DNA of 64,000 nt from Parachlamydiales bacterium (GCA_023265455.1 JAHFTQ010000006.1:30746-94745); one strand, 5' to 3'. Shown: positions 186 to 53,397, counted from the stretch's first letter. The notes: a model not told the origin generated them from the sequence alone. A program made the numbers and translations.

Positions 186-312
186 CGTTTAGCAGAGAGG
201 CGCTTACGCGCGGGAGAGACGCGGAGAACGCAGAGTAAAAAAATCCCAGGAATTTTTCTCTGCGCCCTCTGCGTCTCTCCCGCGCGTAGTGCCTCTGCGC
301 TGATGAAACTTG
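186..312. repeat. Family A palindromic repeat, copy A1 (core-only, degenerate, no terminal TIRs)
   Basis: agcagagaggcgcttacgcgcgggagagacgcggag ... ctctgcgtctctcccgcgcgtagtgcctctgcgctgatgaaact forms a GC-rich hairpin. It is homologous to the cores at 17280-17415 and 53210-53335. Confidence 0.7.
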
Positions 313-334
313 TCCTAAGTATTGTTGCGAATTG

Positions 335-2548
335 TTAAAAAAAAGTCGAGAGGGGATCGACATCGACTAAAAGATGGACATGGGGATGTTTTTTTAAAAC
401 TTTGACAACCTCAGTGACAGGACGAGCTGACGCCCCTTTGATGAGACATTGAAATCTAAAGTGGTCTTTAATTTTGGCATAGCCGCAAGCAATGACGGGA
501 TGAAGTTGGTAGCCGGAAGAGAGGGCTTTGATGAGCATCTGACGCACTTCCTGGGCATAACCTAGAGTCATAGTTTCATCTTTGCCAGAGAAAGTGAGTT
601 TGACTAAATGACAAGAGGGGGGGAAGTGAAAAAGTTTACGCACTTCGATTTCTTCATTGAAGAAAGCGGGATAATCGAGCTTGGCCGCGTGTAAGATGGT
701 GCTATGGTGGGGAAGCTGGGTTTGAAGGATGACTTCTCCTTTCAAGCTACTGCGTCCTGCTCTACCTGCCACTTGGGTGATCAGCTGAAACGTCTGTTCA
801 GAGGCGCGAAAATCGGGAATCTGCAGCGCTCCATCGGTGTTGAGGACACCTACAAGAGTCACCGAGGGAAAGTGGAGCCCTTTGGCGATCATCTGAGTTC
901 CGATGAGAACATCGGCTTTTCCCGCGCGGAATTGTTTGAAAAGTTTGTCATGGCTTCCCTTATGGCGCGTTGTATCGGCATCGAGGCGGATGGTGCGGAC
1001 TTCTGGGAAAATCGCGTGAAGAGACCTCTCGACTAACTCAGTACCAGCGCCTTTAAATTTAAAGGCCTCTTCAGCTTGGCAACCCGGACATGTTTTAGGA
1101 AGCGGAGAAAGTTCATAACCGCAGAGGTGGCAAGATAGAACATTTTGACCTTTGTGAAAGGTGAGGCTCAGCGAGCAGTGAGGGCATTGCAGGATGTGCG
1201 CGCAAAGATTGCAAGCCGCGGAGGTATGAAACCCCCTACGGTTCAAAAAAAGAAGCGATTGCTCGCCGATCTCCAATCGCTTTTTTAAAGAGGCGAGAAG
1301 TTGATCTGAAAAGAGAGTAAATCCCTTGGCTTTGTCGAACTCAGCTCGCATGTCGACGATTTGAACAGAAGGTAAATGAGCGCTGTCAGCGCGCAGTGTC
1401 AGCGAGCTCAACGTGTATTTGCCACTCAGTGCATTAGCGTAACTTTCAAGGCTAGGAGTCGCGCTTCCTAAAATCACCGTTGCCCGGCAGATTTTTCCTC
1501 GCATGACGGCGACATCGCGGGCATGATAGCAGGGCGTGTCGTCGGCTTGCTTGTAAGCTGAGTCGTGCTCTTCGTCGACGACGATGAGGCCGAGATTGTT
1601 GACCGGACTAAATAGCGCGGATCTGGGGCCTACCACTAAAGAAAGAGTTCCTTGCCGGATCTTTTGCCAGGTGTCACGCCGCTCTCCATCGCTGAGTCGA
1701 TGGTGAAGAATAGCAACTTTTTCTTGGAACCTGCTGCGGAGTCTTTCGACGGTTTGTGAAGTCAGGGCAATCTCGGGGACTAGAAATAGAGCCGATTTAC
1801 CTTGGGCCAGCGCTCTTTCGATGGCCCGCAGGTAGACCTCGGTTTTACCGCTACCTGTGACGCCATAAAGAAGGTGAGTCTCGAAAGTCGAGGCATTTAA
1901 GCTTCCCAAAATTTTTTCTAAAGCCGCTTCTTGCTCAGCATTGAGTACTTTTGACTTCGTCGGAAAAAAATCGTGCTCTAAGGCGAATGAGCGATCAATG
2001 GTGATCGGAGCGAGCGATAAAATGCCTGCCTCAACAAGCGTCTCAACAGGACTTCGAGAAACCTCAGCTTTTTCGAGAAGCTCCGTCAATAAAATCCCCT
2101 GGGGATGCTTAAGCACGGTTTCCAAGACTTTAGCTTGAGAGCCCCGCTTTTGACTACAGACATCAGCTAGCTGAGGCCGTGTCAGAAGTGATTTGACGAG
2201 CAGCTGTTTTTTTTCTTCCATGCCTCGACGAATCTGAGGTGGCAAAAGGAGTTTAATCACCTTGAAAAACGGTGTGCAATAGTAGCTAGCCAGCCAAATT
2301 CCCAAGGCAAGAAGATCAGGAGCAATGGCTCGGTCAGAAGAATGGAGGGCAACAATAGGCTGGGTTTTTTTTGACGCGGTCTCTTTTTTGAGAGAGATGA
2401 CAGTTCCACTGCAGCTTTGTTTTTGCAAAGAGACTTGGACACGCATGCCAGGCCCCACCTGATCTATCAAATGGGCGGGAACCGCGTAATCGAGAAGCTT
2501 ATCGAGCGCTACGTCGACGTAGATAGCAGCGTAGAGAGGGTTTTCCAT
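335..2548 (-). CDS. priA: Primosomal protein N' (replication restart helicase PriA)
   Basis: 737 aa. Walker A GVTGSGKTEVYL, DEEHD box, a CxxC...CxxC zinc-binding insertion (CNLCAHILQCPHCSLSL...CHLCGY...CPGC) and a C-terminal helicase motif QVAGRAGR. Confidence 0.95.
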   Translation of the reverse strand: MENPLYAAIYVDVALDKLLDYAVPAHLIDQVGPGMRVQVSLQKQSCSGTVISLKKETASKKTQPIVALHSSDRAIAPDLLALGIWLASYYCTPFFKVIKLLLPPQIRRGMEEKKQLLVKSLLTRPQLADVCSQKRGSQAKVLETVLKHPQGILLTELLEKAEVSRSPVETLVEAGILSLAPITIDRSFALEHDFFPTKSKVLNAEQEAALEKILGSLNASTFETHLLYGVTGSGKTEVYLRAIERALAQGKSALFLVPEIALTSQTVERLRSRFQEKVAILHHRLSDGERRDTWQKIRQGTLSLVVGPRSALFSPVNNLGLIVVDEEHDSAYKQADDTPCYHARDVAVMRGKICRATVILGSATPSLESYANALSGKYTLSSLTLRADSAHLPSVQIVDMRAEFDKAKGFTLFSDQLLASLKKRLEIGEQSLLFLNRRGFHTSAACNLCAHILQCPHCSLSLTFHKGQNVLSCHLCGYELSPLPKTCPGCQAEEAFKFKGAGTELVERSLHAIFPEVRTIRLDADTTRHKGSHDKLFKQFRAGKADVLIGTQMIAKGLHFPSVTLVGVLNTDGALQIPDFRASEQTFQLITQVAGRAGRSSLKGEVILQTQLPHHSTILHAAKLDYPAFFNEEIEVRKLFHFPPSCHLVKLTFSGKDETMTLGYAQEVRQMLIKALSSGYQLHPVIACGYAKIKDHFRFQCLIKGASARPVTEVVKVLKKHPHVHLLVDVDPLSTFF

Positions 2549-3117
2549 AGGTCTTTTTTGAGCTCGGGATTTTTCAAATAGGCGGCGGCCTGCTGCATGA
2601 GGATAACGGGAGTCTCGCCTAGGAAACAGGTTTTAGAGGCGGGGGTTTCTTTGTAAAAACGAGCTAGAGAAAGCGATTTCCACTCTTGTAAAGGGGGAGC
2701 GAGGATGAGTTTGAGCTGAGGAGAGCTAAGGATCATCTCCCAGCCATTTTCTTTTTCGATCTCAATGAGATGAGCTGGAGCTAAATGAGAGTGAATGGCT
2801 TTTGTCATATTTTGTAAAAGTTGTAATGCAGCGTCACTCTCTTTGAGAGTTAGCACAAGCACTTGGGCGGTCAGTTGGGGCTCTTTCCACAGGTTCGAGC
2901 GCTTGCGAGCTTCATGATCCGGGGGAATTTCCGTCTTCAAAGCCATCTCAGGAAGAGCTTTTTTAATGAGCTTTTGCATTTCAGGATCGATCACTTCGGA
3001 GGGCCTTTTTTTCTTCGTGGAGAAATACTCAAACTCTTCAGGAGAAACCAAAATGGAGTCTTGTTTTGCAGCTTCTTGCTTGAGAAATTCTAAAGAGTCG
3101 CGGATGAGTTGATCCAT
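2509..3117 (-). CDS. Hypothetical protein
   Basis: 202-aa ORF co-directional with priA, overlapping its start by 40 nt. I recognise no motif. Confidence 0.45.
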   Translation of the reverse strand: MDQLIRDSLEFLKQEAAKQDSILVSPEEFEYFSTKKKRPSEVIDPEMQKLIKKALPEMALKTEIPPDHEARKRSNLWKEPQLTAQVLVLTLKESDAALQLLQNMTKAIHSHLAPAHLIEIEKENGWEMILSSPQLKLILAPPLQEWKSLSLARFYKETPASKTCFLGETPVILMQQAAAYLKNPELKKDLWKTLSTLLSTST

Positions 3118-3590
3118 TCAGGGGTATAAAAGCCTCGTTTTTGGTATTGATCAGCAACCATCAGTTTAAGCTTTTCGGGCCCTTCTGGGCAAATTTTATT
3201 CAGGATCGACTCAATATTTAGGAAATTTCGATGTTTGAGAAGAAATAAAAGCAGATTTTCATTGGTTTGACAAGCCAAGACAAAAGGCTCTAATAGCTCC
3301 ATCAGCTGATGACAGGGCTTGTCGAGATGTCTCAAAAATTTTTGAGCCTCCGCAGCAAGAGATGGAAATGCAGCCGAAAGAAGAGAGGCATGCTCTGAAA
3401 CTTTGTAATGAGAGCCTTGCTTCCACGACCAGTCGAAAGGCGCCAGAAGGGGAGGGGCCTCTTTGCTTAAGTAGCCTTCAGCTCGGATCAGCTCTTTGAG
3501 GATGAATTGAAGAATGAGTGAGGGTCCTTCGCCTTCTGAGGCGGTGGAGAGTGAAAAAGGGGAGTGAAAGTACACGTGCTGCCCAACCAT
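3090..3590 (-). CDS. Hypothetical protein
   Basis: 166-aa ORF with a 28-nt overlap onto the downstream ORF, which suggests an operon with priA. I recognise no motif. Confidence 0.45.
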   Translation of the reverse strand: MVGQHVYFHSPFSLSTASEGEGPSLILQFILKELIRAEGYLSKEAPPLLAPFDWSWKQGSHYKVSEHASLLSAAFPSLAAEAQKFLRHLDKPCHQLMELLEPFVLACQTNENLLLFLLKHRNFLNIESILNKICPEGPEKLKLMVADQYQKRGFYTPEWINSSATL

Positions 3591-52776: not shown

Positions 52777-52785
52777 GAAAGCATC

Positions 52786-53028
52786 ATGACAAGTTCATCA
52801 ATTTGTGTTGTATTCGAAGTAGAGGGAGTAAAGGCACCACTTCCGTCTTCTTATTTTGTTAAAAATGCAGCTAGTAAAGATGTTGATCAACTGATGCAGA
52901 AAGTTTTAGATCATTATCAACGCCATGATTGCTCCGTGCAAGTCTTGATGGGTAGATCCATTGAAGAGCTGACCCAAAGAGCTGTTATCCCAATAAAAGA
53001 GCTTTTTGAGCCTCGCCAAAACAGCTGA
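52786..53028 (+). CDS. Small hypothetical protein, likely co-transcribed with the RelA/SpoT-like gene
   Basis: 80-aa ORF starting 9 nt after the upstream stop, preceded by aggaaagc. No motif recognised. Confidence 0.4.
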   Translation: MTSSSICVVFEVEGVKAPLPSSYFVKNAASKDVDQLMQKVLDHYQRHDCSVQVLMGRSIEELTQRAVIPIKELFEPRQNS

Positions 53029-53160
53029 AAAGATTTAAAGGGCCTAAGTTTTTTCAGTGAGTATAGTGCCCAAAAAGGCTTCGATGGCTTGAGCCCGAAA
53101 TTATCAATCGTAAAGAACGTCCTCTAGTTTATCTTTTGAATATGGAAAATTCAGTATTGA

Positions 53161-53397
53161 TGCCATGTGCAACTTTTAGCACACTATCCAACTGATCAAG
53201 TTATGGCGGTAAATTTCATCAGCGCAGAGGCGCTTCGCGCGGGAGAGACGCTGAGGACGCAGAGAGGAAATTTAAAAATTCCCCTCTGCGTTCTCAGTGT
53301 CTCATGCTTTGCACGGAGTGCCTCTGCGCTGATGAAACTCATACTCTTAGGACAAAATACTGACAACTACGTGATATGACAAAAGTTGCACATGGCG
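53161..53397. repeat. Family A MITE-like element, copy A3 (237 bp; arms inverted relative to A2, core in the same orientation)
   Basis: TIRs tgccatgtgcaactttt / aaaagttgcacatggcg. The left arm here is the reverse complement of the A2 right arm. The asymmetric core (gcttcgcgcgggagagacgc on the left, gtctcatgctttgcacggag on the right, loop ggaaatttaaaaattcccc) reads the same way as in A2. Confidence 0.85.

Follow-up and report, generated by a model that had tools for sequence, protein, structure and literature searches.

The stretch of DNA described here, which we call the window, is 64,000 nucleotides of a Parachlamydiales genome (C24:30746-94745 of assembly G000) and carries, among others, the genes for the type III secretion proteins SctV and SctU, a PATR autotransporter, PriA and SucC. 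Interspersed with them are nine long palindromes that we take, with considerable confidence, to be MITEs (miniature inverted-repeat transposable elements). An earlier note on this DNA had mapped nine such palindromes; all are present, at or near their mapped positions, and fold into near-perfect hairpins with minimum free energies of -73 to -159 kcal/mol. The assembly is a metagenome-assembled genome (MAG) of a groundwater chlamydia, 97% complete, with 1.94 Mb in 30 contigs and 45% G+C, and its genes were taken from crude open reading frame (ORF) calls. The sequence was recovered in four groundwater-metagenome runs, and the closest SctV relatives are uncultured Chlamydiae/Parachlamydiales MAGs, with identities of at most 75% among named records. 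The window holds no tRNA and no Rfam family at the gathering threshold; the elements themselves draw only sub-threshold matches to generic miRNA hairpins in Rfam.

A seed-and-align scan of the whole genome found 146 long hairpins, one per 13 kb and together 1.3% of the sequence, compared to a single hairpin in a triplet-shuffled control. The unusually high density claimed in the note is thus confirmed, and it lies far above what terminator hairpins would be expected to give; at about one element per 7 kb the window has roughly twice the genome average. Self-BLAST combined with the pairing of end motifs resolved at least ten families, with 2-23 copies each on many contigs, sharp ends and narrow length distributions: C1 167-169 bp, cl3 166-168 bp, C2 169 bp, cl4 161-165 bp, B2 163-165 bp, cl0b/c 165-167 bp, E1 164-166 bp, cl6 168-170 bp, D1 about 163 bp and B1 166 bp. 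Nearly all families thus fall between 161 and 171 bp, as the note had said of most elements (about 160-170 bp); the A-outer elements are longer, at 237-239 bp, and doubles of 324-340 bp consist of one element inserted in another.

Comparison of arms joins B1, B2, cl0b, cl0c and c134 into a superfamily, S1, and C1, C2 and cl3 into a second, S2, whose three members are also connected by hybrid copies. E1, cl4, cl6, cl11, c122 and D1 have no detectable relation to S1, to S2 or to one another, yet are of equal length. The note's minimum of five families is correct, with two amendments: a common core unites B1 with B2, and C1 is a relative of C2; and the statement that families share an architecture and no sequence is right between superfamilies and wrong within them. 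The elements have no coding capacity, and any ORFs running through them are extensions of neighbouring genes. The spurious ORFs that the note described are confirmed, false or extended ones being 11121-12596, which extends sucC through C1, and 45920-46243, which traverses D1. Nor did the elements turn out to be fragments of one insertion sequence (IS).

The distribution of the families differs in depth. C1 occurs in 13 of 18 congeners and in 0 of 12 other sampled families of the order. BLAST with B1 finds the inner ~110 bp of S1 in 41 of 200 genomes of the order, and a covariance model built on aligned S1 hairpins detects the superfamily in 163 of the 400 genomes sampled, or 100 of 212 genera; its matches are full-length, at 164-170 bp, and those listed come without exception from the same order. 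In viral contigs, a long pattern from the S1 core gave 0 matches and a 16-mer gave 24, about the estimated chance number. The closed genome of one congener, G016, is denser in long hairpins than G000 (96 in the 800 kb sampled) and has a separate family of 216-220-bp near-perfect palindromes with no counterpart in G000.

Reading along the window, A1 (188-308) is a stand-alone copy of a palindrome termed A-inner (19 genome copies of 116-163 bp, two of them longer) and lies 27 nt past the priA stop; its right end is GCTGATGAAA, with CTTGTCCTAAG continuing to 319, and its left end is degenerate. B1 (11043-11208), a 166-bp S1 element (TAGTGCCC...GGGCACTA), occupies the divergent region upstream of sucC and has a second copy at C20:161746 that is 99.4% identical in different flanks. 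The 167-bp S2 element C1 (11254-11420; GACCTC...GAGGTC) has the right end GAAGGAGGTC, 12 nt before the sucC GTG start at 11433. A2 (17230-17468) and A3 (53160-53398) are full A-outer elements of 239 bp, each with a 17-bp terminal inverted repeat (TIR), a non-palindromic body and a nested A1-type palindrome (17291-17414 and 53214-53337, respectively). The 239-bp A2 (ACGCCATGTGCAACTTTT...) stands at the overlapping stops of two convergent ABC genes between copies of a 7-bp duplication, TAAACTA (17223-17229 and 17469-17475), which, as read from the sequence, keeps both stop codons; A3, inverted relative to A2, is flanked by GTATTG at 53154-53159 and 53399-53404.

Farther along, the 164-bp E1 (41286-41449; ACTTGAG...CTCAAGT) is bounded by ATTT at 41282-41285 and 41450-41453, and an AAA-ATPase ORF enters it by 28 nt to stop at 41311-41313. 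For B2 the note's interval, 42335-42450, covers the inner part only; the full element, 42311-42471, is a 161-bp S1 chimaera with a left arm of the cl0c subtype and a right arm of the B2 subtype. This copy forms a poorer hairpin and contains the stop of a PIN gene (42331-42333); its chimaeric make-up and missing duplication suggest recombination between two elements and possibly a local rearrangement beside the PIN toxin gene. D1 (46135-46295), 161 bp with S1-like TACC...GGTA ends and TA on both flanks, stands between two divergent start codons, that of sctU and that of a 246-aa gene, and has a second copy at C11:212189. C2 (49237-49405), a 169-bp S2 element (GAGAGTGTTTCAAAACTCAG...), has TAA duplicated at 49234-49236 and 49406-49408, the left copy being the stop codon of a 706-aa gene. 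A tenth hairpin, at 6207-6293, was rejected as a family member because it is low-complexity AT-rich DNA.

Several lines of evidence show that the elements have moved. Target-site duplications, assessed on 3-20 copies per family, exceed within-family permutation in B2, C2, cl4, cl3, E1, C1 and A-outer. B2 copies carry TWA in 7/8 cases, C2 copies T(A/G)A in 3/4 and cl4 copies 2 bp in 6/6; cl3 makes 4-bp duplications (TAAA, TATT, TATA) that are exact in 3/7 copies and found in 5/7 with one mismatch allowed, E1 makes 4-bp duplications (ATTT, AAAT) in 2/4, C1 2-3 bp in 10/17, and A-outer 6-9 bp. At C27:23745 a C2-type host carries a B2-type element inserted at GGGGG-TAA-TATACG; TAA borders the insert left and right, and the empty site is represented by C2 copies that are intact; a second nested insertion lies in a cl4 host, for which intact paralogues likewise serve as empty sites. 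In the congener G002, a C1-like element of 163 bp falls exactly on the ATGA where sctU and sctV overlap, a junction that is empty in 10 of 11 congeners; the end of this element gives sctU a TAG stop and places an AGAGGG motif ahead of the ATG. Near-identical copies also stand at unrelated loci, E1 reaching the same 99.4% as B1.

We found no orthologous empty sites for the window's own copies among the congeners, which have 75-88% SctV identity and non-syntenic flanking genes, so that only the sctU/sctV junction is informative there. No element-skipping allele was seen in Logan contigs of the four groundwater runs, which break in the palindromes. Insertion into pre-existing hairpins was considered and, for this genome, rejected, given that the complementarity of reconstructed empty sites (5.56 of 14) is no higher than in within-family permutations (5.94) or at random intergenic positions (5.93). 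Because of the sharp ends, the short duplications, the nesting and the species-specific sctU/sctV insertion, we read the elements as MITEs.

Candidate parents for both superfamilies were found in relatives. The closed congener G016 has 12 copies of a 1575-bp IS, those compared being 100% identical, that encodes a 390-aa DDE protein whose best NCBIfam matches, IS1182 and IS5, fall below cut-offs. The TIR of this IS, GAGGGAATTGCAAAACT, agrees with the cl3 TIR, GAGGTGGTTGCAAAACT, at 14-16 of 17 positions, with G000 variants reaching 16/17, and the IS and cl3 both make 4-bp duplications, so that for cl3 the TIR and the duplication length point to the same candidate. C1 and C2 are tied to this IS through hybrid copies and arm similarity. 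A 74-bp mini-element of G016 with a TACA duplication links cl3, C2 and C1 together with the hybrid copies. Homology of MITE interiors to the 1575-bp IS past the TIR was weak (z 3-4.5) and was not accepted. At each end of the IS (L107:1424-1513 and 2909-2998) the 17-nt TIR precedes a separate subterminal hairpin of ~70 nt, and some copies lie in small palindromic targets, for example TTTAATT-GAAA-T-AATTAAA. Mini-palindromes that are little more than a pair of IS-like TIRs (GAGGGAGTTGCAAAACT) occur at G000 C21:2080-2110 and G016:C1:226770-226843, the second being the one of 74 bp with the TACA duplication, and could be minimal MITEs or excision remnants.

For S1 the candidate parent belongs to the IS630 family, which many genomes of the order carry (58 of 201). 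The right end of an IS630-family element in the genome G189, ...GAGAGGTATA, is the S1 terminus, and it shares 26 of 39 end positions, counted by eye, with the S1 copy of the same genome (binomial p about 5e-5). TA flanks most order-wide S1 copies, with TWA in the B2 subfamily; of the IS630 unit one end is defined.

The G000 assembly itself contains no PF01609 (DDE_Tnp_1), PF13359 (DDE_Tnp_4) or PF13358 (DDE_3) domain, and no PF01797 (Y1_Tnp) above cut-off. The three IS transposases of the congener have no tblastn match in it, and a search of G000 for IS-sized units with one of 15 end motifs at their boundaries found none, which leaves the families with no cognate autonomous IS in that assembly. 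The repeated mobile genes of G000 comprise two IS607-like types (serine recombinase and TnpB), an IscB-like HNH protein and, judging from its sequence, an Rpn/PD-(D/E)XK-like protein, none of which is associated with the hairpins. One IS607-type element lies in the window at 25568-27782, with its serine recombinase at 27127-27735 (NCBIfam IS607 transposase, 201 bits) and a 517-aa TnpB at 25587-27140; it has about six genome copies, and copies occur at several contig ends (C6, C13, C14, C20, C22, C25, C30). A candidate IscB-type RNA-guided nuclease of 456 aa is encoded at C10:19721-21091 and present in three copies; its N-terminal motif, ...HQPLMPC..., and its HNH block suggest the assignment.

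Taken together, these results make it highly probable that the elements are MITEs, that is, non-coding, non-autonomous DNA transposons whose two arms are full-length inverted copies of each other. A DDE transposase acting in trans would bind the ends and excise or copy the element, insertion would proceed through a short staggered cut at an A/T-rich site, and repair of that cut would duplicate 2-4 bp (7-9 bp for A-outer). Several transposase lineages would take part, an IS1182/IS5-like enzyme for S2 (C1, C2, cl3) and probably an IS630-family enzyme for S1 (B1, B2 and, by its ends, D1). With TA, TAA or TTA-like targets, and with only gene-sparing insertions surviving, copies would be left at stops and starts; abutment to stop codons would thus stem from A/T-rich target choice combined with purifying selection. 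Some ends would themselves provide the stop (TA+G) or a Shine-Dalgarno-like GGAGG. Because the assembly has no matching transposase, the copies are orphans, and the enzyme may have been lost, may be unassembled or may act from another replicon. Orphan MITEs are common, so the missing parent IS lowers our certainty about the enzyme and not about the class of element.

The arms of the elements have a distinctive pattern of variation. The twenty C1 copies have a mean mutual identity of 88.6% (measured on 17), and 98.8% of their arm positions are paired. Double compensatory changes affect 23 of 73 pairs, compared to 9.9+/-1.6 after shuffling (0 of 500 shuffles reach the observed number) and 2-5 when partners are slid. 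Asymmetric bulges are kept in nearly all copies, which indicates that both arms are inherited as they stand and argues against regeneration of one arm from the other by fold-back. Relative to the conserved asymmetric marks on the arms, the apical ~17 nt of C1 occur in both orientations (8 vs 12 copies), even within one subfamily, and the close relatives at C14:46085 and C24:111200 are in opposite states. Such flip-flop inversion inside a 167-bp element shows recombination between the arms. For S1, 20 loci that represent at least 15 families form complete hairpins, and fifteen of them, measuring 162-174 bp, were aligned. Their ends read TATACC, the outer arms are hypervariable and yet complementary, the core is conserved and asymmetric, and 50 of 63 pairs have compensatory double changes with very few G-T states.

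Parts of this picture weigh against a MITE origin of the ordinary kind. The outer arms of S1, the part a transposase would be expected to bind, are hypervariable and the inner core is conserved across the order, the reverse of a textbook MITE. Compensatory changes maintain arm complementarity over the whole length, which classical TIR recognition does not require. The G000 assembly has no transposase of the expected kinds, although some copies are 99% identical. C1 and cl0b have imperfect or ambiguous duplications, those of cl0c are ambiguous too, and few copies were sampled. Finally, no left end was found for the G189 IS630 unit, and S1 and IS630 are weakly associated in 200 genomes (16/41 vs 42/159, Fisher p=0.08). 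Gene conversion between arms, a single-stranded intermediate under selection or use by the host may lie behind the whole-stem pairing, the core conservation of S1 and the length shared by unrelated families with apparently different transposases.

One alternative takes these features at face value, with a folded single-strand DNA hairpin being recognised rather than a double-stranded TIR: an enzyme would bind the asymmetric core and make its cut a set distance away, at the foot of an ~80-bp stem, which would hold the length near 165 nt and oblige the arms to remain complementary. It would account for a length that does not vary, for conservation being reversed and for G-T intermediates being almost lacking, and it fits the compensatory pairs of S1 and C1, the conserved asymmetric core between hypervariable but paired outer stems, the exclusively full-length covariance-model matches, the equal length of unrelated families and the 99%-identical copies in a genome without a classical transposase. 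Short, variable duplications are, however, the signature of staggered double-strand DDE integration, and the ends resemble real IS ends. Moreover, the conserved arm mismatches could just as well be two different protein sites, one left and one right, on duplex DNA, the covariation could stem from arm-to-arm gene conversion, given that the flipped apices show recombination between arms, and no candidate enzyme was identified. We therefore regard this alternative as unlikely. Equally unlikely is its broader form, in which S1, and perhaps all the ~165-bp families, would be an ancient order-wide fold-back class that needs the folded hairpin, with cuts measured ~80 nt from the core and a stem of any sequence so long as it pairs strictly by Watson-Crick rules.

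The position of the elements relative to genes bears on a second alternative. Crude ORF calls leave 9.4% of the genome uncovered, and 93 of the 146 elements are found there. Element ends abut stop codons as the note had described, with 24 of 55 stop-facing ends within -2 to +3 nt of a stop, and they often adjoin start codons too. Read outward, C1 termini are GGAGGTC or AGAGGTC, with an ATG 3-7 nt beyond in about 11 of 40 ends (counted by eye), and may act as ribosome-binding sites; some ends would appear to be pre-adapted to sit between genes. A scan for promoters and terminators at the elements found no excess. In addition, 0 of 19 genomes from the genus gave a match to the SbcD_C domain. A genus lacking the SbcCD hairpin nuclease could tolerate many long palindromes, for which the evidence is weak because the model finds the domain in only 5 of 14 control genomes.

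Such placement could mean that the hairpins have been domesticated, being kept for host use as terminators, as RNase III or mRNA-stability sites or as adaptors providing stops and Shine-Dalgarno sequences, with mobility accounting for their origin only. The ends at stops and starts, the GGAGG or AGAGG of C1 termini, the TAG stop and AGAGGG motif that the G002 element supplies to sctU/sctV, the conservation of the S1 core across an order and the known effects of MITEs such as Correia and ERIC on transcripts are all consistent with this. Against it, insertion sites are not conserved between species, as the 10 of 11 empty sctU/sctV junctions illustrate, copies are polymorphic and mutually nested, the rarity of G-U pairs argues against selection on an RNA helix, and the terminator and promoter scan found no excess. 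In our assessment continued host use is improbable as the reason for the elements' presence.

A relationship to REP/BIME elements with a RAYT enzyme, or to palindrome derivatives of IS200/IS605 with a Y1 transposase, was a lead implied by the note, which named no class, and the elements are indeed palindromic and intergenic in a genome with TnpB and IscB-like genes. The note had itself seen no RAYT or Y1 transposase in the window; we also found none, in the window or, above cut-off, genome-wide, and in the genus Y1 genes are sporadic and do not track the presence or number of elements. REPs and BIMEs are built of 20-40-bp palindromes, compared to 161-239 bp here; the note's statement that the elements are much longer than REP units holds (four to eight times), and its statement that they are longer than Correia elements holds only marginally. 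IS200/IS605 elements have a Y1 TnpA and neither TIRs nor duplications, both of which are present here, and no hairpin family lies at the IS607 ends in the window. This origin is very improbable. An assembly or amplification artefact in the form of chimeric fold-back contigs, suggested by the breaks of short-read contigs inside palindromes, is scarcely credible when contigs from four separate runs, and relatives' closed genomes as well, contain the same sequences and their flanks and duplications are consistent.

Other genes in the window include three for possibly host-directed proteins: a Fic-domain protein (6394-7449), an 811-aa protein with a C-terminal BMT5-like methyltransferase domain (22147-24582) and a 572-aa protein with a RelA/SpoT-like domain (51058-52776). 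A family of ~700-aa proteins has a window copy at 47116-49236 with no Pfam match and about 12 paralogues (10-13 repeats), the longest at C16:2710-5163. The C-terminal region of these proteins is repetitive and appears beta-helix-like, and copies of the family underlie many long repeats and contig ends.

The Waddlia genome paper describes classical chlamydiae as almost devoid of repetitive elements (PMC2878342), and no mention of elements like those described here was found in it; neither MITE surveys nor full-text literature searches yielded a report of MITEs in chlamydiae. An environmental chlamydia with about 150 hairpin transposons of several superfamilies therefore points to a large, apparently undescribed layer of mobile DNA in obligate intracellular bacteria. 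These elements break short-read assemblies, give rise to ORFs that are false or extended, move promoters and ribosome-binding sites from their places, as happens upstream of sucC and around the type III secretion genes sctU and sctV, and can mark recombination, as in the chimeric B2. A length that stays the same, arms that covary by Watson-Crick changes only and a core that is conserved while the outer stems are free together offer a clean and testable case of whether hairpin formation is needed for MITE propagation; recognition of the folded hairpin, if true, would be a mode of transposition distinct from ordinary TIR recognition.

Among known systems, integron attC sites are similarly imperfect palindromes with conserved asymmetric bases right after ORFs, but they form cassette arrays beside an integron integrase, whereas the copies here are single, dispersed among housekeeping genes and flanked by variable duplications. 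Rickettsia RPE are palindromic repeats of 100-150 bp that an obligate intracellular bacterium likewise tolerates at or inside genes; RPE are known for inserting in-frame in coding sequences, and most of the elements described here (93 of 146) lie outside crude ORF calls. With the IS1182/IS5 superfamily the S2 elements share their ends (GAGGnnnTTGCAAAACT), through the match to the TIR of the congener's 1575-bp IS, and 4-bp duplications (3-bp and TNA-like in C2), although the likeness ends after the TIR, the IS protein scores below NCBIfam cut-offs and the IS is absent from G000. The likeness of S1 to IS630/Tc1-mariner elements is tentative: S1 copies have TA flanks and start with TACC, and one IS630-family element, from a genome of the same order, likewise ends in TATACC and agrees with the local S1 copy at about two thirds of the following 33 nt, but B2 duplicates TWA rather than TA, G000 has no IS630 and co-occurrence is weak.

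The closest likeness, judged from descriptions, is to the MITEs Correia/NEMIS of Neisseria, ERIC of enterobacteria, bcr1 of the Bacillus cereus group, RUP/IS630-Spn1 of pneumococcus and the QMITEs of Coxiella. Like these, the chlamydial elements are non-coding, in the range of 100-200 bp, bounded by TIRs and short A/T-rich duplications (TA for Correia and RUP), dispersed in many copies at gene boundaries and able to fold as one long stem-loop. The same traits appear in reviews of MITEs, which mention targets rich in A/T, stem-loops that are stable and the insertion of one element into another (PMC10969869), and both nesting and inversion have been reported for bacterial MITEs (PMC10969869; PMC2229807). 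What sets the present elements apart is the coexistence of many sequence-unrelated families of the same length, the order-wide occurrence of one superfamily with a conserved inner core and the chlamydial host: the kind of element is known, and the families are new.

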